64,000 nucleotides of DNA, from contig VBID01000115.1 of NCBI GenBank assembly GCA_005880615.1, forward strand, positions 16,431 through 80,430. Reading direction: 5' to 3'. Of this stretch, positions 40,682 through 58,005 are shown in pieces. The position numbers and the translations under genes were made by a program. Positions within the stretch are counted from its first letter, which is position 1. Each line of letters opens with the position of its first letter. This DNA comes from Chloroflexota bacterium. Lineage in GTDB: Bacteria > Chloroflexota > Dormibacteria > CF-121. The notes below the pieces were generated by a model. It searched no databases. It was given only the letters and a program-made list of their open reading frames with translations, and was not told where the DNA came from.

Positions 40682-41521
40682 TTATCTGATCGCCACCAGA
40701 ACAACCCCGGCCAGGATCGCCCCGGCCCCTGCCATCCGCAGCCACGCTCCCGTCCGCTCGTGCAACCGCCACACTCCCCAGCCCGTCACCAGCACGATGG
40801 CCGACTCGCGCACCGGTGCCACCACCGTCAGGGGAGCCAGGCGGAACGCTCCTAGCACCATCAAATAGGCCGCCGTCATGGGGATGCCAATGGCCAGCCC
40901 TCGGCGCCAATCGGCGGCGCGCCAGGTTACATTTCTCTCGCGCAGGAGCACCCAGGCCGACAGCAGCACCGCCACCCCTACCCATAGCGCCCAGCCGTAA
41001 AGCCACACCGGACCCAACCGCACCCCCACGCGATCCACTGCCGAATATGCCGCAATGCACACCGCCACCAGAAGCGCCGGTAGGGTCGCGGATCCGGCCG
41101 CCGCCGGCCGCCGGACGGCCCACACACCCGCCAGCAGGCACGCCACCCCGGCCAGTGCGACCAGACTCACCCGCTCCCCCAGCACGGTCAACCCGATAGC
41201 CACGGCCAGCAGCGGCGCCGTCCCGCGGGCCAGGGGATAGACCATCGACAGCTCGCCCCGCGTATAGGCAACGGACAGGAAGATGAAGTAAGCCAGCTCC
41301 AGGACACTCGAGACGAGCGCCAGGAGCCACCCTACCGGCGGGAGCCCGGGCCGGCCCCAGGCCAACCACAACACCGCCACCGGGATGGTGAGCAGCACCG
41401 CCGAGGACGTCACGGCGCGGGCCGCGGCATGCAGAGGGTTGTCGGACGTTTTCAGAAGCACGTTCCAGGTGGCATGCAGGGTAGCCGCTCCCAGCACCAG
41501 CGCCAGGGCGAGCAGGCTCAC
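40682..41521 (-). CDS. EamA/DMT-family transporter
   Basis: 10-TM profile with two EamA repeats. Confidence 0.8.
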   Translation of the reverse strand: MSLLALALVLGAATLHATWNVLLKTSDNPLHAAARAVTSSAVLLTIPVAVLWLAWGRPGLPPVGWLLALVSSVLELAYFIFLSVAYTRGELSMVYPLARGTAPLLAVAIGLTVLGERVSLVALAGVACLLAGVWAVRRPAAAGSATLPALLVAVCIAAYSAVDRVGVRLGPVWLYGWALWVGVAVLLSAWVLLRERNVTWRAADWRRGLAIGIPMTAAYLMVLGAFRLAPLTVVAPVRESAIVLVTGWGVWRLHERTGAWLRMAGAGAILAGVVLVAIR

Positions 41522-42149: not shown

Positions 42150-43262
42150 ATGCCCGTGATCACGGCCCACACCGACGTCGTCGGCAGCCTGCTGCGGCCG
42201 CCCGAGCTGCTCAAGGCCCGGGATGACCTGGTAGCCGGAAAGATCGCGTCGGCGGCCTTCAAGAAGATCGAGGACCGGGCGGTGGATGCGGCCGTCAAAC
42301 TCCAGGAGGACGCCGGCCTGGACGTCGTCACCGACGGCGAGATGCGCCGCCTCTCCTTCCAGAGCGCGCTCACCGATGCCGTCGATGGTTTCGGTGACGT
42401 TCCCCTGGAAGCCTTCCTCTGGGGCGACTGGCATAGCGAGGTCCTCGGTGAAATGGACATCGCCCGGCCCCCGGAGCTGGGAGTGACCTCAAAGCTCAAA
42501 CGCCGCCACCACCTGGCCGCCGAAGACTTCACTTACCTCCGCGGCCGCACCACCCGCATCCCGAAAATCACCCTGACCAGCCCCAGCCTCTACGCCAACC
42601 TCTGGTCCAAGGAGCGCTCGGGCGACGTCTATCCCACCCTCGACGACTTCCTGGCCGACGTGGTCGCCATCTACCGCGACGAGGTGGCCGAGCTGCAGCG
42701 GCTGGGCGCGACCTACATTCAGCTGGACGCGCCCCACTACCCGCTGCTGATCGAACCCAAGTGGCGGGCCTTCTACGAGGCGCGCGGCTGGAGCGTGGAC
42801 CGCTGGCTCTCGCACGGCATCGAGCTGGACAACGCCGTCATGGCCGGCCACGATGGGATCACCTTCAGCATGCACCTGTGCCGCGGCAACCAGGTCAGCC
42901 GCTGGCTGGTGTCCGGCGGGTACGAGCCGATCGCCAGGCAGATCTTCCAGACCGTCAACGCGGACCGGTTGCTGCTGGAGTACGACGACGCCCGCTCCGG
43001 CTCGTTCGAACCGCTGCGCGAGGTCCCGGAGAACAAGATGGTGATCTTGGGCCTGGTGACGACCAAGACGCCACGCCGGGAGACCGTCGAGGACCTGACC
43101 GGGCGCATCAAGGAGGCAAGCCGCTACCTGCCACTCGAGCGCCTCGGCCTGAGTCCCCAGTGTGGGTTTGCCACGTCGGTGATCGGCAATGCCATCACGG
43201 TGGACGACGAGCGCACCAAGCTGACCGCCATCGCCCGGACTGCGCAGGCCGTTTGGCGCTGA
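42150..43262 (+). CDS. cobalamin-independent methionine synthase-like (MetE C-terminal/UroD-like fold) Zn-dependent methyltransferase
   Basis: 370 aa; MetE-type zinc ligand motifs ([11 protein letters not shown]; SPQCGFAT) and (beta/alpha)8 barrel pattern. Start at the internal ATG (MPVITAHTD); the upstream ORF part overlaps the PRTase pseudogene. Confidence 0.75.
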
Positions 43263-44686
43263 GCTCTTCGTCCGTCACCATCACCGGGCGGGGGCTGACC
43301 CTCGACGAGGTCATCCAGGTCGCCCGTCAAAAGGCCCAGGTGGTGCTCCACCCGGATGCGATCAAGACCATGCGACGATCGCGGGCGGTCGTCGAGCGCG
43401 CGGTCGAGCGGGGCGACAACGTCTACGGCCTCACCACCGGGGTCTCCGCGCTCAAGCGGGCACGCGTCGATCCTGGCGCGCTAGCCCGGTTCAACCGAGA
43501 CCTGATCATCCAGCACCGAATCGCCCAGGGCCCGCCGGCCGCCGCCGACACCGTGCGGGCCACGCTGGTGCGCCTACTGAATCACCTGGCCTCTGGCTAC
43601 CCAGGCGTCCGCCCGGAGCTGGCCGCCCACGTGGTCCAAGCCCTCAACGAAGACCGGCTGCCGGTGGTCCGCACGCTCGGCTCCGTCGGCCAGAGCGACC
43701 TCGCTCCGATGGCCGACCTCGCCCACGGTGTGCTAGGCGACTTTGCGCTGGCCGCCGGCGAGGGGCTCTCGCTGCTCAACAACAACGCCTTCTCCATCGG
43801 CTCGGCGGCGCTGGCCATGCATGACCTCGGCCGCCTGCACCAATCAATGCTCAGCGTCGGGGCGCTCAGCCTGGAAGGGTTCCATGCCAACCCGAGCATC
43901 CTGCACCCGTCGCTCGAGTCTGCCCGCCCGCTGCCCGGCCTCAAGCGAGCGGTGGGCCAGATTCGCAGGCTGCTGGAAGGCAGTTTCCTATGGTCCGCCC
44001 CGCCGCGCAACCTGCAGGACCCGCTCACCTTCCGCACCCTGCCCCAGGTCATCGGCGCCCTGGACGACGCACTCGTGTACGCCCGCGACCAGCTCGACCG
44101 GGAGCTCAACGCGGCCCAGGGCAATCCCATCGTGGTAGTCGACGAAGATCGGATCATCTCAGTCGGAAATTTCGACATCGCGCCCCTGGCGGGGGCGCTC
44201 GACCTGCTGCGGATCGCGCTGGCGCCGGTACTGACGGCGTCGGCCGAACGAGCCATCAAGCTGCTCGAGTCGCCGTGGTCGGGTCTCCCCACGGGTCTCC
44301 TCCCAGGTGACGGCACGCCCGACGCCGGCCTGAACGAGCTCGGGATCGCCGCCGCGTCGCTGGCGGCCGAGGCTCGCCTGCTGGCCCAGCCGGTTTCGTT
44401 CGAGCTGCCCAGCACCTCCCTGGCGGAGGGGATCGAGGACCGTATGACCCAGGCACCGCTGGCGACCAGGCGCCTGAACCAGATGATGGATCTGTCCGCA
44501 CGCATCCTGGCGATCGAGCTCACGGTCGCCGGCCAGGCCGTGGAACACCGCAATTTGCAGCCGTTGGGACGCGGTACCGCCAAGTTGCTAGCGCAACTTC
44601 GCCAGCGAATCGCGTTCATGCGGGAGCCGGGGCAATTTCCTGACAACCTCGAACCCGTCGTGGACCTGGTGCGAATGCCAGGGTAG
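43253..44686 (+). CDS. aromatic amino-acid ammonia-lyase-family protein (HAL/PAL-like) lacking the MIO-forming Ala-Ser-Gly triad
   Basis: Full-length HAL-like fold (N-terminus TITGRGLTLDEVIQVARQ, conserved ...NNNAFSIG..., ...QGNPIV...). In the MIO loop, GSVGQS-DLAPMADLAH replaces the canonical GSVGASGDLAPLAH. TTG start at 43253 overlaps the upstream stop by 10 nt. Confidence 0.75.
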   Translation: MALSSSSVTITGRGLTLDEVIQVARQKAQVVLHPDAIKTMRRSRAVVERAVERGDNVYGLTTGVSALKRARVDPGALARFNRDLIIQHRIAQGPPAAADTVRATLVRLLNHLASGYPGVRPELAAHVVQALNEDRLPVVRTLGSVGQSDLAPMADLAHGVLGDFALAAGEGLSLLNNNAFSIGSAALAMHDLGRLHQSMLSVGALSLEGFHANPSILHPSLESARPLPGLKRAVGQIRRLLEGSFLWSAPPRNLQDPLTFRTLPQVIGALDDALVYARDQLDRELNAAQGNPIVVVDEDRIISVGNFDIAPLAGALDLLRIALAPVLTASAERAIKLLESPWSGLPTGLLPGDGTPDAGLNELGIAAASLAAEARLLAQPVSFELPSTSLAEGIEDRMTQAPLATRRLNQMMDLSARILAIELTVAGQAVEHRNLQPLGRGTAKLLAQLRQRIAFMREPGQFPDNLEPVVDLVRMPG

Positions 44687-44695
44687 GAATGTTGG

Positions 44696-45832
44696 CTAGG
44701 TCGCTGGGGCGCCGGCGACCGCGGCATCGATCACCACAATCGTCCGGGCCCCGACGCCGCGGCGCATTCGGTCGAACGCCTCGTCGATGCCCTGCAGGTC
44801 CGTGAAGTCGGAGACCACCTCTCGCAGCGGCAACTTCCCGTCAACCACCATCTGCGCCAGCTGTGGGATGTCCGCCCGCGGGTTTCCCGAGCCGTAGAAA
44901 CAGCCCTTCAGGCCCTTGGCCGACAGCAGCTCGATGGCCGGGATGGAGACCTCCAGTCCGCGGGGCGCCAGCCCAACCACCACGGCCGTGGCGCCGGGCC
45001 GCAGCACGTCCCACGCCTGGCGGATGGTGGCCGCGATGCCAACCACCTCAATGGCATGGTCGACGCCGCCACCGGATAGCTCCCGGATGCGCCCGACCGC
45101 GCCGTCGCGCGAAGCATCGACTCCGTCACTGGCACCCATCGCCAGGGCGCGGTCCAGCTTCTCTTGGCTGCGGTCGACCGCGATGATGGGCCTGGCCCCG
45201 GCGCGCTGGGCGGCCGCCACCACCTGAAGCCCCACGCCCCCGCAGCCGATGACGCACACGCTCTCGCCGGGTTTCACCTTCGCCACGTTGCGCACCGCGC
45301 CGAACCCGGTGATGACCCCGCATCCGACGAGGGCGGCCTCCCATAAGGGGAGCGCTCGCGGGATGGGGATGGCCGACGCCTCAGGCACGACGGCGTACTC
45401 GGCAAAACAGGACACGAAGTTGAAGTGCTTGAGCGACGACCCGTCCGCGGACTGCAGGCGCATCGTCCCGTCCAGCATGGTGCCGCGATACGCGTACTCC
45501 CCGGACGGCTCGCACAGCGTGACTTCCCCGTTCCGGCAGGCGCGGCAGACGCCGCAGAAGGGCACGATGGAAAACGACACATGGTCACCTGCGGCCACCT
45601 GGGTGACGCCCTCGCCCACCGCCTCGACCACGCCGGCGCCCTCGTGACCCAGCACGATGGGGAGCCGCTTGGTTCCCAGCCCACCTTCGGCAAACAGCAG
45701 GTCGGAGTGACAGACGCCCGCCGCCGCCACTCGCACCAGCACCTCGCCCGCGTGGGGAGAGTCCAGGCGCACCTCCTCCAGGGTCATCGGCTGCCCGATG
45801 TCGCGCAGCACCGCCGCCCGCATGCGCTTCAT
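44696..45832 (-). CDS. Zn-dependent alcohol dehydrogenase (MDR family)
   Basis: GVCHSDL...GHEGAGVVEAVG catalytic Zn site, structural Zn Cys cluster (C..C..C..C), GxGxxG (VIGCGGVGLQVV). Confidence 0.85.
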   Translation of the reverse strand: MKRMRAAVLRDIGQPMTLEEVRLDSPHAGEVLVRVAAAGVCHSDLLFAEGGLGTKRLPIVLGHEGAGVVEAVGEGVTQVAAGDHVSFSIVPFCGVCRACRNGEVTLCEPSGEYAYRGTMLDGTMRLQSADGSSLKHFNFVSCFAEYAVVPEASAIPIPRALPLWEAALVGCGVITGFGAVRNVAKVKPGESVCVIGCGGVGLQVVAAAQRAGARPIIAVDRSQEKLDRALAMGASDGVDASRDGAVGRIRELSGGGVDHAIEVVGIAATIRQAWDVLRPGATAVVVGLAPRGLEVSIPAIELLSAKGLKGCFYGSGNPRADIPQLAQMVVDGKLPLREVVSDFTDLQGIDEAFDRMRRGVGARTIVVIDAAVAGAPAT

Positions 45833-46947
45833 TTGACCCGGAATTTCTCCAGCGCGTTCAGGTCGGGCGTGACACCGAGGCCCGGCCCGTCGGGTGGCCG
45901 GATGGTTCCATCGGCCGCGATCTCCAGCGCCAGCGGAAGGAGCGTGTCGCGCCGGGCTGGGCTCCAGGCCGGCGGATCGTAGGGGACCTCGATGTACTCG
46001 CAGGTGGAGACCGCCATGGCCAGATGGAGGTTGGCGACCAGCCCGATGCCGTTGCTCCAGGTGTGCGGCGAGAACCAGCGACCGAACAGGTCGGCCATGG
46101 CCGCGATCCGCCGGCAGCCACCGATGCCCCCGGCCAGCACGACGTCCGGTTGGATGACGTCCACCCCGCCGCGCACCACCAGGTCGCGCGCTTCGTGCGG
46201 GCTGCGTACCATCTCGCCGGCCGCGATTCGGATCCCAGTGCGCTGCCGCAGCAGGGCGTAGCCCTCCACGTCGTCCGTGCGCAGCGGCTCCTCCAGCCAG
46301 TAGATGTCCAGGGGCTCCAGGGCCTTGGCCACCGCCGTGGCCGTCGACAGATCCCAGGGCGTGCGCCGGTCACCGGCCATCCGCCAACCCTGATTGACGT
46401 CGACCATGATTTGCATGGTCGATCCCACCGCCTGCCGCACGGCCTTCACCACCTCCACATCGCGCCGCCAGTCGGTATGGCTGAACCGGATCTTGACCGC
46501 CAGGATGCCGCGATCGCGCCAGGCGACGGTCCGCCGCACGCGCTCCTGGGGCTCGACCCGTTCGCCGCTGGAGGCGTAGGCCGTCAGATGATCGGACCGC
46601 CCGCCCAACACCCGCCACAGCGGCTGCTGCAGCGCGCGGCCGACCAGGTCCCAGACGGCCACCTCCACCGGCCAGGGCCGGCTGCCGTGGAAATCCACCG
46701 TCTCGCAGACTTCGCGCACTACCTCGGTCTGCATGGGGTCCACGCCTTTGAGGAAGCGCTCCAGCACCTCGCGGTCGGGCAGCGGCGCGCCGCTGCCAAA
46801 CCCACACACCCCGTCTCCGGCGTGCACGATCACCAGCGTGTCGTCGACGTGGTCGCGCGGCACCGGGTCCCAGGCCGCCTTGAACGGCGGATCCAGCGGG
46901 AACCGGTACCGGCGGGTCTCGATCCCGGTAATGCGCACGTCAGCCAT
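45829..46947 (-). CDS. enolase-superfamily enzyme (mandelate racemase/muconate lactonizing enzyme family)
   Basis: N-terminal capping domain plus TIM-barrel with metal ligands (MVDVNQGW ... IYWLEEP ... DVIQPD) and catalytic KxK region. Confidence 0.8.
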   Translation of the reverse strand: MADVRITGIETRRYRFPLDPPFKAAWDPVPRDHVDDTLVIVHAGDGVCGFGSGAPLPDREVLERFLKGVDPMQTEVVREVCETVDFHGSRPWPVEVAVWDLVGRALQQPLWRVLGGRSDHLTAYASSGERVEPQERVRRTVAWRDRGILAVKIRFSHTDWRRDVEVVKAVRQAVGSTMQIMVDVNQGWRMAGDRRTPWDLSTATAVAKALEPLDIYWLEEPLRTDDVEGYALLRQRTGIRIAAGEMVRSPHEARDLVVRGGVDVIQPDVVLAGGIGGCRRIAAMADLFGRWFSPHTWSNGIGLVANLHLAMAVSTCEYIEVPYDPPAWSPARRDTLLPLALEIAADGTIRPPDGPGLGVTPDLNALEKFRVK

Positions 46948-46989: not shown

Positions 46990-48108
46990 TCATGCGGCGT
47001 GGGCGTCCAGGTCCAGCACCGCCCGCACCGGGATGCCCTGGCGGACCAGGTCCAGCGCCTGCGCCGCGCTGCGTAACGGCAAGCGGTGCGTGATGAGCCG
47101 CTCCAGCGGTAACCGCCCATCCGCGTGGAGCGCCAGGATGGCGGCGAAATCCCGGTGTGGGCTGACCGATCCGTAGGCGCTCCCCAGGATGCGCCGCTCG
47201 GCCCGCGGGATCTGGACGGCCGGCAGCGCCAAGACGGCGTCCGGGCGGGAGATGCCGATCAGCACCGCCGCCCCGCGAGGCCGAGTCGAGAGAAATGCGG
47301 CCTGCATCGCCTCTTCCCGTCCGGTGGCTTCGATGGCGTAGTCGACGCCTCCACCCGACGCGTCCTTGACCGCCCTGGCCGTCGCCTCCGGCGTGCCGGC
47401 CCACGGCACGACCGCGCTGGCGCCCAGCTCGGTCGCCGTCCGCAGCTTGTCGGCTGACACGTCGACCGCCACGATCGGTGCGGCGCCCACGCTTCGCGCC
47501 CCCAGGACGGCGCTCAGGCCAACACCCCCGCACCCGAAGATGGCGACCCGGTCTCCGGGCCGGACCTCGGCGGTGCGCCAGACCGCCCCCACGCCGGTTG
47601 ACACGGCGCAGCCCACCAGGGCCGCCACGTCGAATGGAACCGAGGTGGGGATAGGCACGCAGCTTGTCTCCGGCACCACCGCCGCCTCAGCAAACGTCGA
47701 CAGGAAGGAATAGTGATACACGGGCGAACCGTTGCGCGAGAGACGCGGCGAGCCATCCAGCAGGCCTCCGTGGCCCATGGCCGTCCAGGCCACCCGGCAC
47801 AGGTGGGTCAGCCCGCGGACGCATTCCTCACACCGCCCGCAGGAGGGCATCCAGGACAGCGCCACGTGCGTGCCCACCCGCAGCTGGACGCCGGGACCAA
47901 CCGCCTCCACCACGCCAGCGCCCTCGTGGCCCAGCACGGCCGGGCAGCGGGTTTCGGACGTCCCGTCGACGGCGTTCAGGTCGCTGTGACAGACGCCGCT
48001 GGCGTGCAGGCGCACCAGCACTTCGCCCACTTGGGGATCCGCCAGCTGCACCTCGGTCACGTCCACCGGCCCCCCGGTCCGCTCCAGGACCGCTGCCAGC
48101 GCTCTCAC
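46990..48108 (-). CDS. Zn-dependent alcohol dehydrogenase (MDR family), second copy
   Basis: GVCHSDL...GHEGAGVVEAVG, GCGGVG. Start placed at GTG 48108 preceded by GGAGGAGG. The 5' 290 codons of ORF 46990..48990 have no coding character and overlap the Gfo/Idh/MocA gene. Confidence 0.8.
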   Translation of the reverse strand: MRALAAVLERTGGPVDVTEVQLADPQVGEVLVRLHASGVCHSDLNAVDGTSETRCPAVLGHEGAGVVEAVGPGVQLRVGTHVALSWMPSCGRCEECVRGLTHLCRVAWTAMGHGGLLDGSPRLSRNGSPVYHYSFLSTFAEAAVVPETSCVPIPTSVPFDVAALVGCAVSTGVGAVWRTAEVRPGDRVAIFGCGGVGLSAVLGARSVGAAPIVAVDVSADKLRTATELGASAVVPWAGTPEATARAVKDASGGGVDYAIEATGREEAMQAAFLSTRPRGAAVLIGISRPDAVLALPAVQIPRAERRILGSAYGSVSPHRDFAAILALHADGRLPLERLITHRLPLRSAAQALDLVRQGIPVRAVLDLDAHAA

Positions 48109-48219: not shown

Positions 48220-49197
48220 GTGCGCGTGGCGATAGTGGGTGCGGGCTGGATCGCCGCGGAGCATATCGCCACCCTCCGCCAGCTCGACGCCGTCGAGGTT
48301 GTCGCCGTCTGCGACGTCAATCGGACGCGTGCAGCAGAGCTGGCGGGTCAGGCGGCGACCTATACGCAGTGGACCGAGATGATCGCCCGCGAGCGGCCTG
48401 ACGGGATTTTCGTCTGCACGCCGCCACTGACCCACCGCGAGGTGGCGGTGGCCGCGCTCGAGCAGGACATTCACGTCTACCTCGAGAAGCCGATCGCGCG
48501 AGGGCTGGCCGATGCCCGGGCGATCGTCGACGTGGCCGGCCGCAGCCGCGCCGTCTGCGCGGTGGGCTACCAGTGGCGGGCCGTCGAGGTGCTGGACGAC
48601 CTCCGCGCGGCGCTCAGCGGGCAGGATCTCGGCCTGCTGATCGGGATCAGCGCCGGCCCCACCAGGAGCCGTCCATGGTTCCTCGACCGGGCGCAGGGGG
48701 GCGGGAACCTGCTCGAGCGGGCAAGCCACCAGATCGACCTGGAGCGCGCCGTCGCCGGCGAGGTGGTTTCCGTTCAGGCCGCCGCGAGTGGGGTGTTGCT
48801 GGCTCAGAGCCAGGGCCAGCGAGGCAACATCGACGACGCCGCCGCGGTCCTGCTCCACTTCGCGGACGGCGGGCTGGGGGCGATCCAGATCGCCTGGACC
48901 CGGGATGGTCTCCCGGGCACCTACTCGCTCGATGTCTACGGCAGCGACGCATCCCTGCACCTCGAGCTCGACCCGGCCTTTGCCCTGCATGGTCGGTCGG
49001 ACGGACGGCAGATCGAGGCGACCTCACGGCAGCATCCCCTCGAGCGAAGCCTGGTTCGCTTCATCGCCGCGGCGCGCGAGGGCAAGCGGGATCATGTGTT
49101 CTGCTCGCCGGTCGATGCGGCCGCCACCCTCGCCGTCGCCATCGCCTGCGAGGAAGCGCTCTCGAGCGGCGGGACCGTCCGCGTGCCGAGCTATTAG
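48220..49197 (+). CDS. Gfo/Idh/MocA-family oxidoreductase
   Basis: MRVAIVGAGWIAAEHI Rossmann N-terminus and the E-K-P motif (LEKPIA). Confidence 0.85.
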   Translation: MRVAIVGAGWIAAEHIATLRQLDAVEVVAVCDVNRTRAAELAGQAATYTQWTEMIARERPDGIFVCTPPLTHREVAVAALEQDIHVYLEKPIARGLADARAIVDVAGRSRAVCAVGYQWRAVEVLDDLRAALSGQDLGLLIGISAGPTRSRPWFLDRAQGGGNLLERASHQIDLERAVAGEVVSVQAAASGVLLAQSQGQRGNIDDAAAVLLHFADGGLGAIQIAWTRDGLPGTYSLDVYGSDASLHLELDPAFALHGRSDGRQIEATSRQHPLERSLVRFIAAAREGKRDHVFCSPVDAAATLAVAIACEEALSSGGTVRVPSY

Positions 49198-49738: not shown

Positions 49739-50266
49739 TCAGTCGCCGCTGTAGAAGGGGTTTTTCAGGTTGTCCCGGTCGGCGACCAGCCGCGCCGCCG
49801 CCTTCGGGTCGCGTCCCTGGACGCAGGTCGCGATCGCCTTCCGCACCGCGTGCCGGTTGGCGACGCGGACCGCGGTCTCATCCTCGGCATCCGGGTCGAC
49901 CCAGACCGCGACAAAGACCAACAGGTCGCCGGTGGCTTCGATCAGCCCGTCCGCCACCGCGTCGAGGACGCCCTGGCCGATCCCAAGCTGCGCGGCGCCC
50001 CAAGTGATCGTCTGGTGCCGGTCACTGGTCGCCGTCGCCTTGTTCATCATCAGGGTCGGCGGCCAGACCGGCTCGTACTGGGCTTCCTCGGGCCCCACGC
50101 AGACGAGTACCGGCGTGTGACCGGGCGCCGGGTGCGCGAACATACCGACCGCCGCCGCGGCGATCGCGCTGCCGCGACGGGCGAGGACGACGTTGACGTG
50201 GCTGCCGTTCGGCTTGACGCCGCCCCAACCCTCGCCGATCCGCCCGTCGAGCTCGTCCGGTATCAC
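49739..50266 (-). CDS. formaldehyde-activating enzyme (Fae)-like protein
   Basis: 175 aa; matches the Fae pattern (HVNVVLARRGS..., TLMMNKATA, GPAQ-like GAAQLGIGQGVLDAVADGLI, C-terminal NPFY). Confidence 0.6.
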   Translation of the reverse strand: MIPDELDGRIGEGWGGVKPNGSHVNVVLARRGSAIAAAAVGMFAHPAPGHTPVLVCVGPEEAQYEPVWPPTLMMNKATATSDRHQTITWGAAQLGIGQGVLDAVADGLIEATGDLLVFVAVWVDPDAEDETAVRVANRHAVRKAIATCVQGRDPKAAARLVADRDNLKNPFYSGD

Positions 50267-52323
50267 GCGGCTGGCTGCTTGGTTCCGGCCACCTGGGCGG
50301 CCTCTTGTGGCTGTGCCTGGAGGCGCCGCAGTTCCTCGATCGGAATGTGGCAGCGCATCAGATGACCTGGCCCGACCTCGACGAGGGGAGGCTCTTTCTC
50401 GTCGCAGATCGCGCCAATTCGCCGGTGGCAGCGGGTGTGGAAGACGCAGCCCGTTGGTGGCGCAGCGGCGCTGGGGATCTCACCGGCGAGCTTGATGCGC
50501 GCCCGCCCGCCGCCATCGATGGTCGGCACCGCCGAAAGCAGGGCCTCGGTATAGGGGTGGTGCGGACCGTCGAAGACGACCTCGGCTGGCCCCATTTCCA
50601 TCAGCCGGCCGAGATAGAGCACGGCGATGCGGTCGGAGATGTAGCGCACGACACCCAGGTCGTGGGAGATGAACAAATAGGCGACCCAGCGCTGGACCTG
50701 AAGGTCGACCAGGAGGTTGAGGATCGCGGCCTGAACCGAGACGTCGAGCGCGGAGGTGGGCTCGTCGCACACGACCAGGCGCGGTTCGCCGGCGAACGCG
50801 CGAGCGATGGCAACCCGCTGCTTGAGGCCGCCGGAGAGCTGGTTCGGCCGAACCGTGAGATAGCGCTCGGCCAGGCGGACCGAGCCGGCGAGCATGAGCA
50901 GCCGCTCCTCGGCCGGGGCTCCCGAGATCCCGGCCAACTTCTTGAGCGATCGGCGGAGGATGCTCCGAACGGCATGGCGGCGGTTCAGCGCCGAGTCGGG
51001 ATTCTGGAAGACGATCTGCAGCTCGCGAACGTCCGCCTGGGTCCGCCTCGAGAGCGTGGGCGGGAGGACATGGGCATCGAGCTCCACCGTGCCTCCGGTG
51101 GGGGCGAAGAGGCCGAGGACGGCCCGGGCAAAGGTCGTCTTGCCGCTGCCGGACTCGCCGACGAGTCCCAGAGTCTCACCCGGCCAGAGCGCCGCGGAGA
51201 CGGCCTCGAGCGCGTGGATCCGGCGCCCATTCTGCTCGAAGGTCTTCGTCAGTTCCTTGACCGCCAGCAGCGGTGCCTTCGAACGGTCGACCAGGATGGG
51301 CTGCCCCAGCTCGGGTGGTGTCGTCCGGGGCAGGTCCTGCGCCCGCTCGTGGAAGTAGCAGCGGCTCGAGTGATCTTCCGTGATTTGATACAGCGGAGGC
51401 TCCGTCGCACGGCAAATGTCCTGAGCCAACCCGCACCGGGGCGCGAAGACGCACGCCCGTAACTCCTCGTCGATCGACGGCAAGAAGCCGGGAATCGTGT
51501 CGAGCCGCCCCCGGTCCTTACGCGCACCGCCTCGCGGGACGCAGCGGAGCAGCCCGACCGTATACGGGTGGCGCGGACCCTTGAGGACCTCGCTGACAGG
51601 GCCTTCTTCGACGAGCCGTCCGGCGTAGAGCACGCCGACCCGTTCGCACATCTTCGCGATCACGCCCAGGTTGTGGGTGATGAACAGCACCGAAGTGCGG
51701 AACTCGGCCTGCAGGTGCTGGATCAGATCGAGAACCTCGGCTTCGACGGTGGCGTCCAGGCTGGTGGTCGGTTCGTCGAGGATCAGCAGCCCCGGATCGT
51801 TGGCAAGCGCCATGGCAATGACGACGCGCTGCTGCATGCCGCCCGACAGCTGGTGCGGATAGCGCGCCATCACCGATCCTGGATCGGCAATCTGAACCTT
51901 GGCCAGCGCCTGCAGCGTCCGTTCCAGGGCCTCCTCGCGCCCGGCGCCACGCACACGGAAGACTTCGGCCACCTGCTCGCCGATACGGATCGATGGATTC
52001 AAGGCTTCCGCGGGATTCTGATACACCATGGACACGTCATTCGTCCGCAAGTGGCGCAGGGCCCGGTTCGACAGGCCCACCACATCGCGGCCGGCAACGC
52101 AAATCGAGCCGCCGCGAATCCGTCCGTTGCTCGCCAGGTACCCGACCACGGCGAGGGCGGTCGTCGACTTGCCGCAGCCGGATTCGCCGACGAGCCCATA
52201 GGTCTCCCCGGCGGCGATGGTGAACGAGACGCCGCGCACGACCTGGCGGTCGCGGCCTCGCACCCGGTAGACGACCTCGAGATCCTTGAGCTCCAGGGTC
52301 GGAGCCGCGCCACGGTCGGTCAT
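50263..52323 (-). CDS. peptide/nickel ABC transporter ATP-binding protein, fused tandem ATPase (DppD-DppF-like)
   Basis: Two complete ABC cassettes (GESGCGKST and GESGSGKTT Walker A; two LSGG signatures), each with the C-terminal oligopeptide-transporter ATPase extension. Confidence 0.9.
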
Positions 52324-53189
52324 CGCCCAAACACCCGGGCGAGCCCGTCGGCGACGAGGTTAACGGCCACCACGAGCGAGATGATGGCCAGCGCCGGGAA
52401 GAGCACTGTCCACCAGTAGGTGCCGGCGCCCAGGAGCGTGTAGTTGTCGGCGATCTGCAGCGCCCAGTCGGGCGACGGCGGCTGCACGCCGAAGCCGAGG
52501 AAGGTCAGGCCGGCGACCGCGAAGATGGCGTAACCGAGGCGCACCGTCGCTTCGACCACGATCGGCCCGAACACGTTCGGGAGGATCTCGACAAACATCA
52601 CGTAGGGGGCTCGCTCCCCTTGGAGGCGCGACGCCGAGACATAGTCGAGCTGTCGCTCGGCCAGCACGGCGGCCCGGACGGTCCGCGAAACGATCGGCGC
52701 GAAGACCAGGCCGATCACCACGATCACGGTCAGGGTGGAGTGCCCGAGCGCCACCAGCACGGTGACCGCAATCACGATCAGGGGCAGCGACAGAACGGCA
52801 TCGACAATCCGGCTGATCACGTCGTCGGTCAGGCCCCGGAAATAGCCGGTGACCAGGCCGATGGTCGTGCCGCCGACAACCCCGAGCAGCGTGGCTAGCG
52901 GCGCGACGATCAGAATGTCCCGAGCCCCGGCCAGCACCCGCGAGAAGACGTCGCGGCCCAGCTGGTCGGTGCCGAAGGGATAGGCGCGGCTCAGTCCCTG
53001 CAGTTGCGGAAAGGCCTGGGACAGCGGATCGTGGGGCGCGATGCGGTAACCGAAAATCGCACAGAACACCCAGAAGGCGATGATGATGACGCCGGCCATG
53101 AAGGTCTTCGACCGGAGGAGCTGCCGCCGGGTCTCCCGCCGGGCGATCCGTATTTCCGATGGCTGGACGATTGTGGCAACGGTGCTCAT
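52320..53189 (-). CDS. peptide ABC transporter permease (DppC/OppC family)
   Basis: BPD_transp_1 permease with the EAA-like loop. Confidence 0.85.
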   Translation of the reverse strand: MSTVATIVQPSEIRIARRETRRQLLRSKTFMAGVIIIAFWVFCAIFGYRIAPHDPLSQAFPQLQGLSRAYPFGTDQLGRDVFSRVLAGARDILIVAPLATLLGVVGGTTIGLVTGYFRGLTDDVISRIVDAVLSLPLIVIAVTVLVALGHSTLTVIVVIGLVFAPIVSRTVRAAVLAERQLDYVSASRLQGERAPYVMFVEILPNVFGPIVVEATVRLGYAIFAVAGLTFLGFGVQPPSPDWALQIADNYTLLGAGTYWWTVLFPALAIISLVVAVNLVADGLARVFGR

Positions 53190-54136
53190 TCAACACCCGC
53201 GTAGCGGATGCGCGGGTTGAGCAGGGAATAGAGAATGTCGGCGAGCAACGTCGCCGTCAGGTAGACGATTCCCACGACGAGCACGCCGCTCTGCAGCATC
53301 GTGAAGTCCTTGTTCAGCGCCGCGGTGTAGATGCGCTGCCCGATGCCGTTGTAATTGAAGAGCTTCTCAATCACGACCAGGCCGCCAATCAGGTACCCCA
53401 TCTGCGTCGCAATCACCGCGATTGTCGGCAGCAAGGAGTTGCGGAGCACGTGCCGGCGGATCACGGTGGCCGTGTCCAGGCCCTTGAGGAAGGCCGTCCG
53501 GGTGTAATCCGACTCGAGGGCCTCGATCGTGCCGGCTCGAGCCATCCGGGCGATGTAGCCGAACAGGACCATCACCAGCGCCAGTCCCGGCAGGATGAGG
53601 TACCGGATCTGGGTGACGGCGTCGGCGTCGGCCGGGGAGGCCGCCGTGACCGGCAACCAGTTCAACAGCAGGCCGAAGATCAGGATCAGCACGATGGCCG
53701 AGATGAACTCGGGCACCGCCGTCAGCGACAGCCCCGTGAGTGTAATCAAGCGGTCCAGCCAGTGGCCCCGGCGAAGCGCGGCGAACACGCCGCCGACGAT
53801 GCTCAGCGGCACCACGAGCACAAAGGCGACGGCGGCCAGCTTCAAGGAATTGACGAGCGAGGGGCCGAGGAGGCTCGCCACCGGAACTTTGTACTCGAGC
53901 GACATGCCGAGATTGCCGTGGGCGAGTTTCCCGATCCAGGCACCGTACTGAACGTAGATCGGCCGGTCCACGCCCAGTTGGTGGTCGAGCGCCTTGACGT
54001 CGTTGGGACTGGCGAACGGCCCGAGCACGTTGCGACCGATGTCGCCCGGCAGCAGCTGCGAGGCGGCAAAGACGAGCACGCTAAGCACGAACAGCGTGAT
54101 GAGCGCGAGAGCGAATCGCTTCAGCAGGAAACGGGC
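53186..54136 (-). CDS. peptide ABC transporter permease (DppB/OppB family); start extended upstream of the ORF-track GTG
   Basis: The first TM helix (ARFLLKRFALALITLFVLSVLVFAA) is in frame upstream of the GTG at 54088. GGAGGAGG RBS at ~54143-54150. Only ATC (54136) or CTG (54124) are available as initiators. Confidence 0.75.
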   Translation of the reverse strand, partial: ARFLLKRFALALITLFVLSVLVFAASQLLPGDIGRNVLGPFASPNDVKALDHQLGVDRPIYVQYGAWIGKLAHGNLGMSLEYKVPVASLLGPSLVNSLKLAAVAFVLVVPLSIVGGVFAALRRGHWLDRLITLTGLSLTAVPEFISAIVLILIFGLLLNWLPVTAASPADADAVTQIRYLILPGLALVMVLFGYIARMARAGTIEALESDYTRTAFLKGLDTATVIRRHVLRNSLLPTIAVIATQMGYLIGGLVVIEKLFNYNGIGQRIYTAALNKDFTMLQSGVLVVGIVYLTATLLADILYSLLNPRIRYAGVE

Positions 54137-54181
54137 GATGACAAACCTCCTCCCGACCGGTCGGGTGTCGGAAGGTATCGA

Positions 54182-55876
54182 TTAGGCGAGCGACGTTTGG
54201 CTGAGGAACACCGTGCCCTGTGGGTCGGCATAGTAACCCTTGACTGACTGCGAGCCCGCGGCGAGGTAGTTGTAGAAGTAGGGGAAGATCACCGGTGTGT
54301 CCTGCAGCAGGATGGTTTCGGCCTGCTTCGCGTACTTCCGCTGGTCGTCGATCGAGATCGCGCCGATGAACGCTTTGGCGGCCGCATCGAACTGCGGGTT
54401 CGAATAGTGCGCGGCGTTCCAGACGCCGTTGGTTTGCAGCGCCGACGTGAGAAACACATTGGGAACCGACCGATGACCCCAGTCGGTGATGTTGATCGGG
54501 GCGTTCAGCCACGGGGTATCGCCCCAACCCGACGGCGGGCCCAGCTGCGAGCCGGCGAAGTAGGCGGTCGAGGTCAGGATGGAGAGCTTCATGTCGATGT
54601 TGATGGCCTTCACAGACTGCTGAATGATCTGCGCCAGCTGAGGGATCTCACCCGTGTCCTCCGTCGTCAGCGTGATCGAGAACCCGTTGCTGAACCCGGC
54701 GGCGGCCATCAACTGCTTGGCCTTGGTCAGGTCCTGCTGCCGCTGGGGCACGTCCGGCGCGCCGACAGTCGACGGGTAGACCGGCCCCCACGGCGTGTCA
54801 TTGCCGACATCGGCGTACTTGCTGAACAACTTGTCGACGATCGCGGGACGGTCCAGCGTCAGCGCGATCGCCTGCCGAACCTGGGGATCCTTCAGCGGGT
54901 TGGCGAGATCCACCCGCATCGGCACCTGGCGGTGGGTGGCGCCGCGACCGCCGAAGATCTGGATCTTCGAATTGTTGAAGAGGGCGCGGTCGGTCGCGAG
55001 CTGGATCTGCCCGATGAGGTCAATCGTGGCGCCAAGCAGGGCCGCGTCGACAGCGGCGGCGTCCTGGTAGTAGGTCACGTCCACCCCGTCGAGCGGCGGG
55101 CGGCCGCCCCACCAGTCGGTGTAGCGCTCGTACTTGGCCCCCACGCCTGGCGTGTACGAGGTCAGCTTGAAGGCACCGGTTGTCTGCGGCTTCGAGGTGA
55201 ACGTCCCGAGCTGATAGTTGGCGGGCAGCATGATGCTCTGGTAGGTCGTGGAGCTGAGCAGGTAGGGGAAGCTCGCCGTCGGATTGTCGAGCTGGAACTT
55301 CAGCGTAAGGTCGTCGACCTTCGTGGTCCCGCCCGGCGAGAGGACCCCCTTGAACGCCGACAGTGCCTGCGAACCCGAGTTCGGGCTGACCAGGCGCTCG
55401 TAGGTCGCCACGATGTCGGTGGCCGTCAGTACCTGACCGGTCTGGAACTTGACGTTCGGCCGCAGCTTGATGGTCCAGACCGACGCGTCCCCGTTCGGTG
55501 TCCAGCTGGTCGCCAGCTCTGGAACGAGCTTGAGGTTGGCCGCGCTGCGGATCAGGTGCTCACCGGCGATGCTTCCGGTCTCGAGCGCCCCCTGGTCGGC
55601 GAATGTATGTGGTTCGATGTCGTGCGCCGGGGGCGGAATGATCCCCACGCGGAGACGCCCGCCGACCTTTGGCCCCGAAGTAGAGGTCGGCGACGACGCG
55701 CAGCCCGCCGCGACCAGCGCAGTGCCGATCGCGGACGTGGACAACCCGAAGACCGTCGCCCGGCGAATGAACTCCCGCCGGTCTACCCTACGGTCGAGGA
55801 GCTCGTCGATGAGTGTCCTTTCAATGGGACCGCTCTGCCGGTACCCATCCAGGCGCCTACGTATCTCCCTATCCAT
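54182..55876 (-). CDS. ABC transporter substrate-binding protein, family 5 (DppA/OppA/NikA-like), Tat-type signal
   Basis: RREFIRRATVFGLSTSAIGTALVAAGC (twin-arginine signal plus lipobox-like Cys); 564 aa SBP_bac_5 architecture. Confidence 0.9.
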   Translation of the reverse strand: MDREIRRRLDGYRQSGPIERTLIDELLDRRVDRREFIRRATVFGLSTSAIGTALVAAGCASSPTSTSGPKVGGRLRVGIIPPPAHDIEPHTFADQGALETGSIAGEHLIRSAANLKLVPELATSWTPNGDASVWTIKLRPNVKFQTGQVLTATDIVATYERLVSPNSGSQALSAFKGVLSPGGTTKVDDLTLKFQLDNPTASFPYLLSSTTYQSIMLPANYQLGTFTSKPQTTGAFKLTSYTPGVGAKYERYTDWWGGRPPLDGVDVTYYQDAAAVDAALLGATIDLIGQIQLATDRALFNNSKIQIFGGRGATHRQVPMRVDLANPLKDPQVRQAIALTLDRPAIVDKLFSKYADVGNDTPWGPVYPSTVGAPDVPQRQQDLTKAKQLMAAAGFSNGFSITLTTEDTGEIPQLAQIIQQSVKAINIDMKLSILTSTAYFAGSQLGPPSGWGDTPWLNAPINITDWGHRSVPNVFLTSALQTNGVWNAAHYSNPQFDAAAKAFIGAISIDDQRKYAKQAETILLQDTPVIFPYFYNYLAAGSQSVKGYYADPQGTVFLSQTSLA

Positions 55877-57607: not shown

Positions 57608-57643
57608 GACTTCGCGGAGTATCGCAGATTGGATACCCCATCC

Positions 57644-58005
57644 AAGCCCGGATCCACCGATCGGACGATGCAGCTTGGGATGCCCGGCGAGATGAGCGGT
57701 AGGAGGCGACGAGCACGCGAAGGAGCGCACCTGAATGGTGCGTGACTGAGCGCGCGCAGGAGACGACACCCGGAGCCCGGGGCCGTCGGACGAACGAAGC
57801 AGATTGGGAGGCGGGGCGTGCCGAGCCGCAGGAGGCGACGAGCACGCGAGGGAGCGCATCCGTCGATGCGTGGCCGAGCGCGCGCAGGAGACGACGACCG
57901 GATCGGCCGCAGCCGCGCCCAAGATGCGAGTTTGTTCCGGCGGCCTCGGGCTCAGCTCGCCCGGCGCCCAAGATGCAAGTTCGATTCGGTGGATCCGGGC
58001 TTAGG
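57644..58005. mobile_element. MITE-like element, copy D (two internal tandem units; best-preserved TIRs)
   Basis: Left AAGCCCGGATCCACCGATCGGACGA; right (reverse complement) AAGCCCGGATCCACCGAATCGAACT; internal hairpins GCACC-TGAAT-GGTGC and GCATC-CGTC-GATGC. Confidence 0.8.

Follow-up and report, generated by a model that had tools for sequence, protein, structure and literature searches.

A histidine ammonia-lyase-fold protein lacking the MIO triad and its short MetE-type partner: a putative histidine-betaine lyase module

What can a protein of the histidine ammonia-lyase (HAL) fold do if it lacks the Ala-Ser-Gly triad that forms the electrophilic MIO cofactor, and why does its gene overlap that of a MetE-like methyltransferase? 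This question is raised by a gene pair in the window, by which we mean the whole analysed stretch of 64,000 nucleotides of Chloroflexota DNA. The features concerned are:

42150..43262, + strand: MetE-like gene (ATG at 42150, TGA at 43260-43262; 370 aa)
43253..44686, + strand: MIO-less HAL-fold lyase (PF00221, E 1e-105; TTG start; 477 aa)
43253..43262, + strand: overlap of the lyase TTG with the MetE-like TGA (10 nt)
43679..43699, + strand: former MIO loop of the lyase, G143-S-V-G-Q-S-D149, placed by alignment

A sequence-only reading of this DNA had described both open reading frames and their stop/start overlap, and both are present as described, with an overlap of 10 nt. Its assignment of the lyase to the HAL/PAL family stands as well, whereas the length of 478 aa it had given has to be corrected to 477 aa, as the 478 codons include the stop. 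Apart from the TTG, no canonical start codon precedes the conserved N-terminus of the lyase, which is short and has no predicted signal peptide region. The 10-nt overlap is kept in four loci, in which the lyase starts with TTG or GTG, and in other clades the overlap amounts to 4 nt (two further loci, and 21 of the 29 junctions measured in the metagenome sample). The two genes, with GC3 values of 0.91 (MetE-like) and 0.86 (lyase), are probably co-translated via this overlap.

The lyase and its former cofactor loop

The loop of the lyase reads GSVGQS-DLAPMADLAH, whereas the canonical HutH paralogs of related loci have GSLGASGDLAP or GSLGCSGDLAP; compared with GSxGASGD it lacks one residue, and its length equals that of the SIGEGD of ergothionase. 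ASG is absent from all 120 best homologs as well as from 163 of 163 aligned family members, which carry G-[QEMVAL]-[SAG]-D instead. Loss of the triad is, by these alignments, a trait of the whole family, and the lyase, judged by its sequence, cannot build an Ala-Ser-Gly-derived electrophile. The sequence-only reading had likewise called the triad missing, unless an indel had put an alternative Ala-Ser-Gly out of register. The sole A-S-G tripeptide of the protein lies at residues 113-115, outside the loop; its residue 114 is variable within the family, and it aligns with A-R-G, A-M-G and L-T-G of enzymes whose real triad is located 33 residues downstream. In the AF2 model of the lyase (pLDDT 92), residues 145-147 are the only segment below 50.

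The other catalytic positions are kept. We take Tyr58 to abstract the beta-proton, Gln255, Arg261 and Asn286/Asn291 to form the carboxylate clamp, and His88 and Glu395 to bind the imidazole. These positions are 93-100% conserved in the family: among 163 members the Tyr is found in 162, His88 in 152, Glu395 in 161, and Gln255, Arg261 and Asn291 in all, and Asn286 is invariant in the lyase alignment. Published descriptions of HAL, ergothionase and histidine betaine lyase list the same residues (bioRxiv 10.1101/2025.08.13.670108; 10.64898/2026.04.22.720169).

The sequence-only reading had cited ergothionase as an example of the MIO-less members of this fold, and the Treponema denticola enzyme (6s7j) is indeed the nearest solved relative by sequence, profile and fold. 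It is the top PDB match of the single sequence (phmmer, 184 bits versus at most 158 for HALs) and of the family profile (308 versus 262-269 bits), and the top Foldseek match of the predicted AF2 model with a TM-score of 0.92, where the TM-scores to HAL, PAL, TAL and TAM structures range from 0.82 to 0.92. In a neighbor-joining (NJ) tree rooted on HutH, which carries no support values, the lyase groups with ergothionase in the MIO-less set. Both share the fold, the missing triad, the short loop ending in Asp and the Tyr, clamp, His and Glu residues, and they have derived states in common, namely Tyr280 to Leu (157 of 163 family members), the His after Asn-Phe to Asp or Glu (161 of 163) and GFG to GV (137 of 163). 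The lyase can be assumed to be an enzyme of the ergothionase and histidine-betaine lyase kind.

However, it is not ergothionase proper. The two proteins share 28% identity, the lyase has a deletion of about 20 residues following the loop, and the clade has invariant changes of its own (E-D-R versus E-D-H, and Gly/Ala364 versus Gln). Lys384 of the T. denticola enzyme binds the ergothioneine thiolate and is essential for ergothionase (10.64898/2026.04.22.720169). At the corresponding position the lyase has Ile365, and the family counts are Ile 69, Val 58, Asn 12, Ala 11 and Lys 2, so that 161 of 163 members lack the Lys. The genetic context differs as well, since ergothionase is accompanied by genes for thiourocanate hydratase and desulfhydrase, whereas the lyase lies beside homocysteine methyltransferases.

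The three MIO-less relatives characterised so far all cleave substrates with a trimethylammonium group (10.1101/2025.08.13.670108; 10.64898/2026.04.22.720169). Besides ergothionase these are Swoo_3913 of Shewanella woodyi, a histidine betaine trimethylammonia-lyase, and SO_3299 of S. oneidensis, an N(pi)-methyl-histidine-betaine lyase (10.1101/2025.08.13.670108; 10.64898/2026.04.22.720169). Compared by their description, both Shewanella enzymes carry a neutral residue (Asn, Gln) in place of Lys384 and release trimethylamine from sulfur-free histidine betaines, and by the same residue logic the same substrate class is predicted for our lyase. Both are periplasmic, paired with flavocytochrome c urocanate-type reductases and part of anaerobic respiration, whereas the lyase described here is paired with cytoplasmic methyltransferases. 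It is most likely that its substrate is a histidine with a cationic, methylated alpha-nitrogen as leaving group, as far as conserved residues allow such a prediction.

A MetE-type partner and recurrent methyl-transfer neighbours

The partner protein matches PF01717 (E 3e-22), has 1ypx as its best PDB match (E 3e-48) and contains the HLCRGN and SPQCGF motifs pointed out by the sequence-only reading; its zinc ligands His242, Cys244, Glu277 and Cys338 do not vary among 120 homologs. It thus shows the PF01717 barrel and the His/Cys/Glu/Cys zinc site by which MetE is recognised. The N-terminal folate-binding domain of full-length MetE (~750 aa) is lacking (PF08267, 18 bits versus a cutoff of 27), and the protein stays below all NCBIfam equivalog cutoffs (48-50 bits for the MetE equivalogs versus 541-930). 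By these features it is a short MetE-type (PF01717, YxjH/1ypx-like) zinc-dependent thiol methyltransferase. The YxjH/YxjG-type (1ypx) and core-MetE/MesA-D proteins likewise consist of a single PF01717 barrel of ~370 aa with His/Cys/Glu/Cys zinc ligands, and core-MetE/MesA-D and other short MetE homologs are presumed to methylate homocysteine from a non-folate donor (PMC7005905, PMC7857596). For the YxjH/1ypx family we found no physiological methyl donor established in the literature. Neither a corrinoid protein nor a MesX (DUF1852) partner was recognised by Pfam among the window genes scanned. The MetE-like gene described here stands in an operon with a betaine-type lyase, an arrangement that the literature consulted does not report for these families.

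This pairing is a deep and recurrent association. Of 55 informative metagenome loci, 27 carry the MetE-like gene immediately 5' of the lyase; a PF02574 homocysteine S-methyltransferase gene adjoins the lyase on its 3' side in 29 of 62, and all three genes occur together in 17 metagenome loci. Over all loci, a MetE-like gene is found within 3 kb of 41 family members, which form 31 clusters at 90% identity, PF02574 near 35 and MttB near 22, and for 81 of 131 members one or more methyl or betaine genes are located close by; these context calls were made by tblastn with seeds on contigs that are truncated. Lyases with as little as 53% identity still show the pairing and keep the stop/start overlap, and paired MetE-like proteins fall into both major branches of the MetE-like tree (NJ, drawn like the other trees without support values). 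In a first sample of 51 loci from species-representative genomes, mostly Thermoleophilia, the pairing was seen only once, hence the association is lineage-dependent.

Along the lyase tree the type of partner shifts clade by clade, yet in every case it is an enzyme of N-methyl or betaine chemistry; in other clades MttB or sarcosine-oxidase/OpuAC genes replace the MetE-like and PF02574 genes. The lyase of Thermoleophilia clades follows a non-Pyl homolog of the MttB superfamily (MtgB, MtpB, MtcB, MtyB; PF06253, E 7e-67), which points to a quaternary amine as substrate class. An MttB-superfamily system of aerobic bacteria is known with MtgBCD (PMC12478193). Different from MttB systems, no corrinoid-binding protein was recognised beside these MttB genes, and a Cys-rich 2x[4Fe-4S] protein is found instead. 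The glycine betaine route via BHMT/Bmt (betaine to dimethylglycine to sarcosine) offers a second parallel, as PF02574, an oxidative N-demethylase and formaldehyde genes accompany the lyase likewise. However, the HAL-fold elimination step has no counterpart there, because glycine betaine has no beta-hydrogen. The module of lyase and methyltransferase is widespread in uncultured soil bacteria and, as it seems, undescribed so far.

In the window, the following genes surround the pair:

40682..41521, - strand: EamA/DMT-family transporter (Pfam EamA, E 1e-17), divergent from the MetE-like gene
44696..45832, - strand: ADH1, class III/formaldehyde-dehydrogenase-like Zn alcohol dehydrogenase (Pfam)
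45829..46947, - strand: enolase-superfamily protein (MR/MLE), acid-sugar-dehydratase-like subgroup (Pfam/NCBIfam scans)
46990..48096, - strand: ADH2, second class III-like Zn alcohol dehydrogenase (Pfam/NCBIfam scans)
48220..49197, + strand: Gfo/Idh/MocA oxidoreductase (Pfam/NCBIfam scans)
49739..50266, - strand: formaldehyde-activating-enzyme (Fae) family protein (PF08714, E 2e-29; NCBIfam one_C_fae below cutoff)
50263..55882, - strand: peptide/opine/nickel-type ABC importer with fused double ATPase, two permeases and SBP_bac_5 protein (translations, Pfam SBP_bac_5)
56771..57922, - strand: PhnD-family (PF12974) substrate-binding protein (Pfam/NCBIfam scans)
58182..58652, + strand: Cupin_2 protein (Pfam)
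58674..59837, + strand: FAD oxidase of the monomeric sarcosine oxidase/N-methyl-tryptophan oxidase type (MSOX/MTOX-like; Pfam DAO)
59827..60855, + strand: PF02574 homocysteine S-methyltransferase, BHMT-type (Pfam, E 2.5e-39)

The full set of EamA, MetE-like, lyase, formaldehyde-handling, ABC transporter, N-methyl-amino-acid oxidase and PF02574 genes occupies 40.7-60.9 kb of the window. The FAD oxidase matches the NCBIfam N-methyl-L-tryptophan oxidase with E 2e-50 (172 bits, below the cutoff of 257) and is predicted to be an N-methyl-amino-acid oxidase. The PF02574 gene lies 15 kb downstream of the lyase, and its product scores 78.6 bits versus a BHMT equivalog cutoff of 338; members of its cluster carry the IMG name "betaine-homocysteine S-methyltransferase", and in locus L055 a copy of 78% identity lies right next to the lyase. 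The best NCBIfam matches of ADH1, which are NDMA-dependent ADH, class III ADH and mycothiol-dependent FDH, are below cutoff. MttB is absent from the window, and no trimethylamine-oxidising genes were recognised.

Several of these genes travel with the lyase. An EamA gene is found up to 2.6 kb upstream in 11 loci in two arrangements, Fae is located nearby in 8 of the first 55 loci, the ABC importer is kept in nine loci, and ADH1 adjoins the lyase in six. The MR/MLE gene is present with the lyase in six loci, and a 63-65% match lies at the locus end in two more. PhnD-family homologs adjoin the lyase in six loci, among them L055. A Cupin_2 homolog of 64-69% identity lies directly 3' of the lyase in L055 and three other loci, and Cupin_2 genes are likewise found in three further loci.

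A proposed route for histidine betaines and its alternatives

We consider the chances about even that the lyase works without MIO and splits a (tri)methylamine off a hercynine-type histidine betaine, in a module coupled to methyl capture on homocysteine. Hercynine (N-alpha-trimethylhistidine) is the candidate substrate, or possibly its once-demethylated N,N-dimethyl product, and the predicted products are urocanate and trimethylamine or dimethylamine. A histidine-derived betaine would be imported, methyl groups would be passed to homocysteine to give methionine, the remaining methylated amine would be removed by the elimination, and the carbon skeleton would enter urocanate catabolism. Betaine-type or other importers and EamA belong to the accessory genes of the module. 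We infer the order of these steps, and likewise that the methyl group used by the MetE-like protein is drawn from the same pathway. Since the imidazole-binding His and Glu, the clamp and the Tyr are kept, and hutU, hutI and canonical HutH genes lie beside the MIO-less copies in three related loci, urocanate is the likely product, which would feed the Hut route from N-methylated histidine. The sequence-only reading had thought of a betaine-type lyase with a methyltransferase module and "not histidine degradation". The gene association has held up, the lyase is not an ergothionase, and the exclusion of histidine degradation was too strong. Its observation that no hutU or hutI homolog is nearby agrees with tblastn, by which none was found in the 64-kb window.

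This observation, the lack of recognised trimethylamine-oxidising genes, the lineage-dependent pairing, the absence of Lys384 and the clade's own invariant changes speak against the proposed route. Moreover, if trimethylamine is released directly from the quaternary substrate, as by the characterised relatives, the neighbouring quaternary-amine demethylases would have no obvious place in the same linear pathway.

Going further, the MetE-fold protein might represent a third kind of betaine-linked homocysteine methyltransferase, with the histidine betaine, a tertiary-amine demethylation product or the released trimethylamine as donor, so that MetE-like, lyase and PF02574 would together make up a complete methyl-salvaging pathway. 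We put this forward tentatively and by analogy, and regard it as rather doubtful. MetE itself uses a protonated tertiary amine in methyl-folate, which is the chemical analogy for the MetE-fold protein. The sequence-only reading had stated that short MetE homologs commonly use quaternary amines. The literature consulted does not establish this; it describes such chemistry for PF02574 (BHMT) and MttB proteins, whereas no quaternary-amine donor is documented for MetE-fold enzymes. If the MetE-fold protein does act in the way put forward here, hercynine-type betaines would be converted to methionine and urocanate by a three-gene unit in abundant uncultured soil phyla, and the YxjH/1ypx family would gain a physiological methyl donor.

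Alternatively, PF02574 or MttB might first demethylate the quaternary betaine, and the lyase would then eliminate dimethylamine or methylamine from N-methyl-histidine, the MIO having been lost since an N,N-dialkyl amine cannot use it. Operon logic favours such sequential steps: enzymes specific for quaternary amines are found near the lyase more often than any others (PF02574 in 35 loci, MttB in 22), the genes stand in co-directional, tightly spaced arrangements (MetE-like, lyase, PF02574; MttB, Fer4, lyase), and the N-methyl-amino-acid oxidase, Fae and formaldehyde-dehydrogenase-like genes fit a stepwise demethylation. We nevertheless consider it unlikely, as the three characterised MIO-less relatives all cleave trimethylammonium substrates, two homocysteine methyltransferases would be left unexplained, and we know of no precedent for a MIO-free elimination of a protonatable amine in the HAL fold.

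The lyase might also be of the betaine type while the MetE-like protein is simply the folate-independent methionine synthase of the lineage, co-transcribed for regulatory or historical reasons and with no chemical link. MetE-like orthologs of 71-82% identity also occur in unrelated contexts without a lyase, and the protein is more conserved than the lyase, which fits a general methionine-synthase role, as do the great abundance and high conservation of its family and the methyl-cycle genes metK and ahcY, which are also found in the window. Moreover, YxjH relatives of Firmicutes are regulated by Met T-boxes and share transcripts with luxS, by which they are identified as genes of methionine synthesis (PMC6004538). 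However, no SAM or B12 riboswitch is found upstream of the MetE-like gene, on the opposite flank of the lyase the same loci carry a gene of the unrelated PF02574 family, and the pairing spans both deep MetE-like branches as well as lyases down to 53% identity with the overlap preserved, which makes an association without chemical link distinctly unlikely.

We see a small probability that the substrate is another N-alpha-substituted histidine, either an opine-type metallophore (staphylopine- or histopine-like) or a sulfur-bearing compound such as ergothioneine or its oxidised or S-methylated form, with Arg397 replacing Lys384 of ergothionase. Arg397 is invariant in the family and otherwise unexplained, the binding protein of the window's ABC importer resembles NikA and CntA (staphylopine) binders in NCBIfam, though below cutoff, and OCD and other dehydrogenase genes (one cluster opine-dehydrogenase-like by eye only) or rhodanese and carbamoylase genes (ErtE-like, below cutoff) stand beside some relatives. 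Besides the loss of Lys384 in 161 of 163 members, a sulfur-bearing substrate is disfavoured by the absence of any urocanase-like gene, as a thiourocanate hydratase would be, from the window and 80 metagenome loci, and an opine by the dominance of methyl-transfer and betaine genes over opine genes among the neighbours.

The IMG annotation of the lyase reads "histidine ammonia-lyase", and HutH shares with it the PF00221 fold, the carboxylate- and imidazole-binding residues and the likely product urocanate. Yet it is hardly credible that the lyase is an ordinary or degenerate HAL, be it a pseudo-enzyme or a HAL working without MIO, as the Ala/Cys-Ser-Gly is missing across a whole strongly conserved clade, other residues stand at Tyr280 and at the His after Asn-Phe, the curated cutoffs are widely missed (hutH 284 versus 539 bits, PRK09367 312 versus 524, phe_am_lyase, Tyr mutase and others lower), a MIO-less homolog from Shewanella was inactive as an ammonia-lyase on all proteinogenic amino acids tested (10.1101/2025.08.13.670108), and genuine HutH paralogs with ASG or CSG (~32-37% identity) coexist in the related loci.

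The overlapping gene pair and the identity of the lyase

The window has a G+C content of about 68%, and its genes stand out by their third-position G+C (GC3). The sequence-only reading had proposed a MetE-like gene overlapping via a TTG start with a gene of the histidine ammonia-lyase (HAL) family, and both open reading frames were found:

42150-43262 (+): MetE-like protein, 370 aa, GC3 0.91, PF01717 (MetE catalytic domain)
43253-44686 (+): lyase, TTG start, 477 aa, GC3 0.86, PF00221 (aromatic amino acid lyase), E 1e-105

The overlap comprises 10 nt, with the TTG lying inside the upstream MetE-like gene as the sole canonical start preceding the conserved N-terminus of the lyase. MIO-dependent HAL-fold enzymes form this cofactor by cyclisation of an Ala-Ser-Gly triad, and the proposed loss of this triad is borne out, as the former cofactor loop of the lyase reads GSVGQS-DLAPM versus GS-x-G-A/C-S-G-DLAP in canonical enzymes. 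The only A-S-G of the protein (residues 113-115) is ruled out as an alternative MIO triad by its place outside of the cofactor loop. It aligns with A-R-G or A-M-G in enzymes whose true triad is located 33 residues later and is not conserved among the lyase family, and therefore it does not represent a triad that had been mis-registered in the alignment. The triad is also missing in all of the 120 best database homologs (55-100% identity), which derive from soil metagenomes and from MAGs labelled, among others, Dormibacteraeota and Gaiellaceae.

The lyase scores far under all curated NCBIfam equivalog cutoffs (hutH: 284 bits versus a cutoff of 539), and since the triad is absent as well, it is not a HutH. 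Among solved structures, it is most similar to 6s7j, the MIO-less ergothionase of Treponema denticola, which the single sequence matches with 184 bits in one end-to-end stretch, whereas HALs reach at most 158 bits in two stretches. Similarly, a profile of 58 family sequences gives 308 bits for 6s7j versus 262-269 for HALs. The AlphaFold model, calculated as a monomer, has a pLDDT of 92, dropping to low values solely within the former cofactor loop (residues 145-147), and superimposes on 6s7j with a TM of 0.92 and an rmsd of 2.2 Å. For a residue census of 163 family members, residue roles were taken from two preprints on Shewanella enzymes (bioRxiv 10.1101/2025.08.13.670108; 10.64898/2026.04.22.720169). 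The catalytic Tyr is kept in 162 members, the imidazole-binding His and Glu in 152 and 161, respectively, and the carboxylate-binding Gln, Arg, and Asn in all 163. Moreover, the family and ergothionase have four derived states in common that are missing in canonical HutH paralogs: a loop shorter by one residue with Asp at its end, Leu instead of Tyr280 (157/163), Asp or Glu instead of the His after Asn-Phe (161/163), and Val instead of the Phe of G-F-G (137/163). Specific for the lyase family are E-D-R in place of E-D-H (159/163) and a Gly or Ala replacing a Gln. These comparisons establish the fold and show that a conserved clade lacks the triad throughout, keeps the HAL residues for substrate binding and the catalytic base, and is specially similar to ergothionase. 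Judged by the features tested, the lyase can be grouped with the MIO-independent trimethylammonia-lyases. However, it is not an ergothionase, because the Lys384 that is essential there and binds the thiolate is absent, the position being Ile or Val in the lyase family. The Shewanella enzymes for sulfur-free histidine betaine also have a neutral residue at this position.

Further MIO-less HAL-fold paralogs are present in three loci, i.e., genome or metagenome contigs carrying relatives of the lyase (L053, 9709-11136 (+); L016, about 3383-4753 (-); L021, 9505-10935 (+)). Their loops read ‘GIGCAG-E’ or ‘GSIGAA-D’, they have Arg at the position of the imidazole-binding His, and one of them sits after a gene of the ornithine-cyclodeaminase family. 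These paralogs probably act on different, non-imidazole substrates.

Gene neighbourhoods of the lyase relatives

A scan of species-representative genomes yielded 51 loci, mostly of Thermoleophilia or Actinomycetota, among which a MetE-like gene adjoins the lyase gene only in L001 (92% identical). Recurrent neighbours in this first sample are non-Pyl MttB-family methyltransferases (PF06253, E 7e-67; 19 of the first 55 loci, often in several copies), a Cys-rich protein with 2x[4Fe-4S] (Fer4), an Amidohydro_2 protein, and sarcosine-oxidase/GcvT-like/OpuAC gene sets. The shallow pairing seen here is misleading, because the peptide patterns used biased the sample towards Thermoleophilia. The MetE-like gene precedes the lyase gene with the identical 10-nt overlap also at 83 and 75% lyase identity, and a restriction of the pairing to relatives of at least 75% identity was overturned by two loci with only 58% (L063 and L064), in which the overlap is 4 nt, as well as by a metagenome sample. 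L055 (61%) has no MetE-like gene, but instead harbors a PF02574 (BHMT-type) homocysteine S-methyltransferase, a cupin, a PhnD-type binding protein, and an OpuA-type betaine transporter.

The metagenome sample, a profile-based scan of contigs, added 80 loci with 52-89% lyase identity. According to tblastn, 27 of the 55 loci with at least 700 nt of upstream sequence have a MetE-like gene immediately before the lyase gene and on its strand, and the MetE-like stop overlaps an in-frame lyase start by 4 nt at 21 of 29 measured junctions. Of the 62 loci in which the downstream sequence is long enough, 29 have PF02574 next to the lyase gene on that side, nearly always co-directional and with a gap of 10-50 nt. 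All three genes occur together in 17 metagenome loci, and one sub-type carries an EamA transporter gene between the MetE-like and lyase genes and an OpuA-type ABC system after PF02574.

Genes located within 3 kb of the lyase gene (clusters at 90% lyase identity)
MetE-like: 41 of 131 family members, 31 clusters
PF02574: 35 of 131 family members, 25 clusters
MttB: 22 of 131 family members, 13 clusters
Any methyl or betaine gene: at least 81 of 131 family members (many contigs are short, so that this is a minimum)

These counts come from tblastn with a handful of seeds on often truncated contigs, and both samples are biased by the peptide patterns that retrieved them. The association of the lyase with enzymes for the removal or acceptance of N-methyl groups spans several lineages and is statistically implausible by chance. 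In a distance-based NJ tree of the lyase (HutH-rooted, no support values) ergothionase clusters with the MIO-less proteins, and the partners vary by clade: MetE-like with PF02574, MttB with Fer4, SoxB with OpuAC, Amidohydro_2, or hutU/hutI. In the corresponding tree of the MetE-like proteins (1ypx-rooted, no support values) lyase-paired genes occur in both deep branches, and all four unpaired orthologs that were looked up nest among paired ones. Therefore, the association of the two genes is old and has been lost in some lineages.

Several loci show further peculiarities. In Thermoleophilia the order MttB, Fer4, lyase recurs (L002-L006, L043, L045, L050, L075, L103, L111); the Fer4 protein there is Cys-rich with 363 aa and two 4Fe-4S motifs, its N-terminal domain is unassigned, and no corrinoid-binding protein was seen near these genes. 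Amidohydro_2 (PF04909) adjoins the lyase gene in 24 loci (e.g., L031, 11414-12280; L076, 7067-7945), never together with hutU/hutI, which are present in few loci (L021, L030). Amidohydro_2 may be an alternative second step on an unsaturated acid product; speculatively, the alternation hints at an α,β-unsaturated acid that is handled by different second enzymes. L073 (3984-13345) has the order MetE-like, EamA, lyase, PF02574, an OpuA-type ABC system (ATPase-CBS, two permeases, OpuAC), and a three-rhodanese-domain protein, the latter hinting at a link to sulfur. An M20 amidase near the lyase of L055 (12637-13851) stays below the cutoffs of both the NCBIfam model of ErtE, the last enzyme of ergothioneine catabolism (375 bits), and the allantoate amidohydrolase subfamily (392 bits).

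The island of the window and its MetE-like protein

The whole recurrent gene set is present in the window at 40.7-60.9 kb. The island starts with EamA (-), a broken phosphoribosyltransferase gene, and the MetE-like and lyase genes (+). These are followed by two class III/formaldehyde-dehydrogenase-like ADHs, an enolase-superfamily protein, a Gfo/Idh/MocA oxidoreductase, and a Fae-family protein, then by a peptide/opine-type ABC importer, a PhnD-type binding protein, and a cupin, and finally by a predicted MSOX/MTOX-like N-methyl-amino-acid oxidase and PF02574. The PF02574, cupin, and PhnD proteins are 78, 65, and 57% identical, respectively, to those abutting the lyase in L055. In the window, PF02574 is displaced 15 kb from the lyase by the ADH-Fae-ABC block, which accompanies the lyase also in L018, L026, L029, L031, L047, L052-L054, and L063. 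As had been noted for hutU and hutI from sequence, neither these genes nor MttB or the Fer4 protein were found in the 64-kb window. The enolase-superfamily neighbour is not a betaine racemase/epimerase like HpbD, since it matches acid-sugar dehydratases best in both PDB and NCBIfam, and hydroxyproline-related models score weakly. At the left edge of the island and within it lie:

39140-39213 (-) and 39286-39360 (+): two divergent tRNA genes
39446-40648 (-): 400-aa ORF, unusually low GC3 of 0.72, no Pfam match
41665-42095 (-): phosphoribosyltransferase-like gene between EamA and MetE-like

The tRNA pair and the low-GC3 ORF could mark an integration site or island boundary. An internal deletion and a frameshift put the N- and C-terminal parts of the phosphoribosyltransferase-like gene into different frames, which probably reflects a pseudogene or else an error of the assembly. 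Pfam gave no match for two sizeable ORFs whose GC3 is coding-like, 32033-33550 (-) and 38171-39223 (-); since the latter overlaps the tRNA gene at 39140-39213, its true start lies further downstream. A methyl-cycle operon at 18779-22712 (-), about 20 kb from the MetE-like gene, encodes SAM synthetase, SAH hydrolase, a PfkB-family kinase, and a phosphoribosyltransferase.

The four Zn ligands of the MetE-like protein are invariant in 120 homologs, as are its Gly-Ser, Asp-Gly-Glu, and Asp motifs, which presumably correspond to the homocysteine site of MetE. The folate-binding N-domain is absent, and among solved structures the protein comes closest to 1ypx (E 3e-48), a Listeria protein that is itself uncharacterised. 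In Firmicutes, the related YxjH and YxjG are putative methionine synthases under the control of Met T-boxes or S-boxes (PMC6004538). Where the methyl donor of a short MetE homolog is established, it is methylcobalamin or a corrinoid protein (PMC7005905, PMC7857596). As a SAM or B12 riboswitch would mark the gene as one of methionine biosynthesis, the upstream region was searched, and no Rfam riboswitch matched at the gathering threshold or at E up to 1. A MesD-type system was rejected, as the window contains no DUF1852; the YxjH family is not discussed in the Mes paper. A function as MetE-fold betaine-linked homocysteine methyltransferase is a tentative and rather unlikely assignment.

A possible pathway and its relation to known enzymes

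From the residues retained, the substrate of the lyase would be an N-α-methylated histidine, with hercynine as the obvious candidate. Hercynine, which actinobacteria and fungi make with EgtD, is the precursor of ergothioneine. Tyr58 would take the β-proton during departure of the amine, which is already cationic in the substrate, and urocanate would result. PF02574 and the MetE-like protein might transfer betaine-derived methyl groups to homocysteine, and the MSOX-like oxidase, Fae, and the ADHs could handle, as formaldehyde, those N-methyl groups that are left. In the characterised relatives, a quaternary substrate directly loses trimethylamine (10.1101/2025.08.13.670108; 10.64898/2026.04.22.720169), which is in tension with the finding that the commonest lyase neighbours are quaternary-amine demethylases. 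The substrate may be the trimethyl compound, with the lyase in a branch alongside methyl harvest, or the lyase may follow demethylation in sequence and act on the dimethyl product.

MIO-less HAL-fold lyases characterised so far are the ergothionases, with an enzyme structure released in 2019, and two Shewanella enzymes (2025-26 preprints). The latter are periplasmic and tied to anaerobic respiration, whereas the clade of the window is cytoplasmic and its partners are consistently methyl-transfer enzymes. Our data show a much larger cytoplasmic MIO-less clade in soil Chloroflexota/Dormibacterota-type and Thermoleophilia genomes. In the open-access literature searched, no description of this clade, its cytoplasmic setting, or its MetE-/BHMT-type coupling was found, and ‘MIO-less’ or ‘MIO-independent’ enzymes appeared only as mutant controls next to unrelated uses of ‘MIO’. 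Likewise, no description of the module was found in the open-access literature searched on hercynine, dimethylhistidine, and homocysteine catabolism, which by this scope is weak evidence. If the proposed pathway is true, soil bacteria would recycle fungal and actinobacterial histidine betaines such as hercynine into methionine and central metabolism, and the module would be a possible source of methylamines in soil. It would also provide a concrete hypothesis, open to testing, on the methyl donor of the YxjH-like ‘methionine synthase II’ proteins, a large family. The IMG name ‘histidine ammonia-lyase’ for the lyase clade is a widespread annotation error, which is corrected here.
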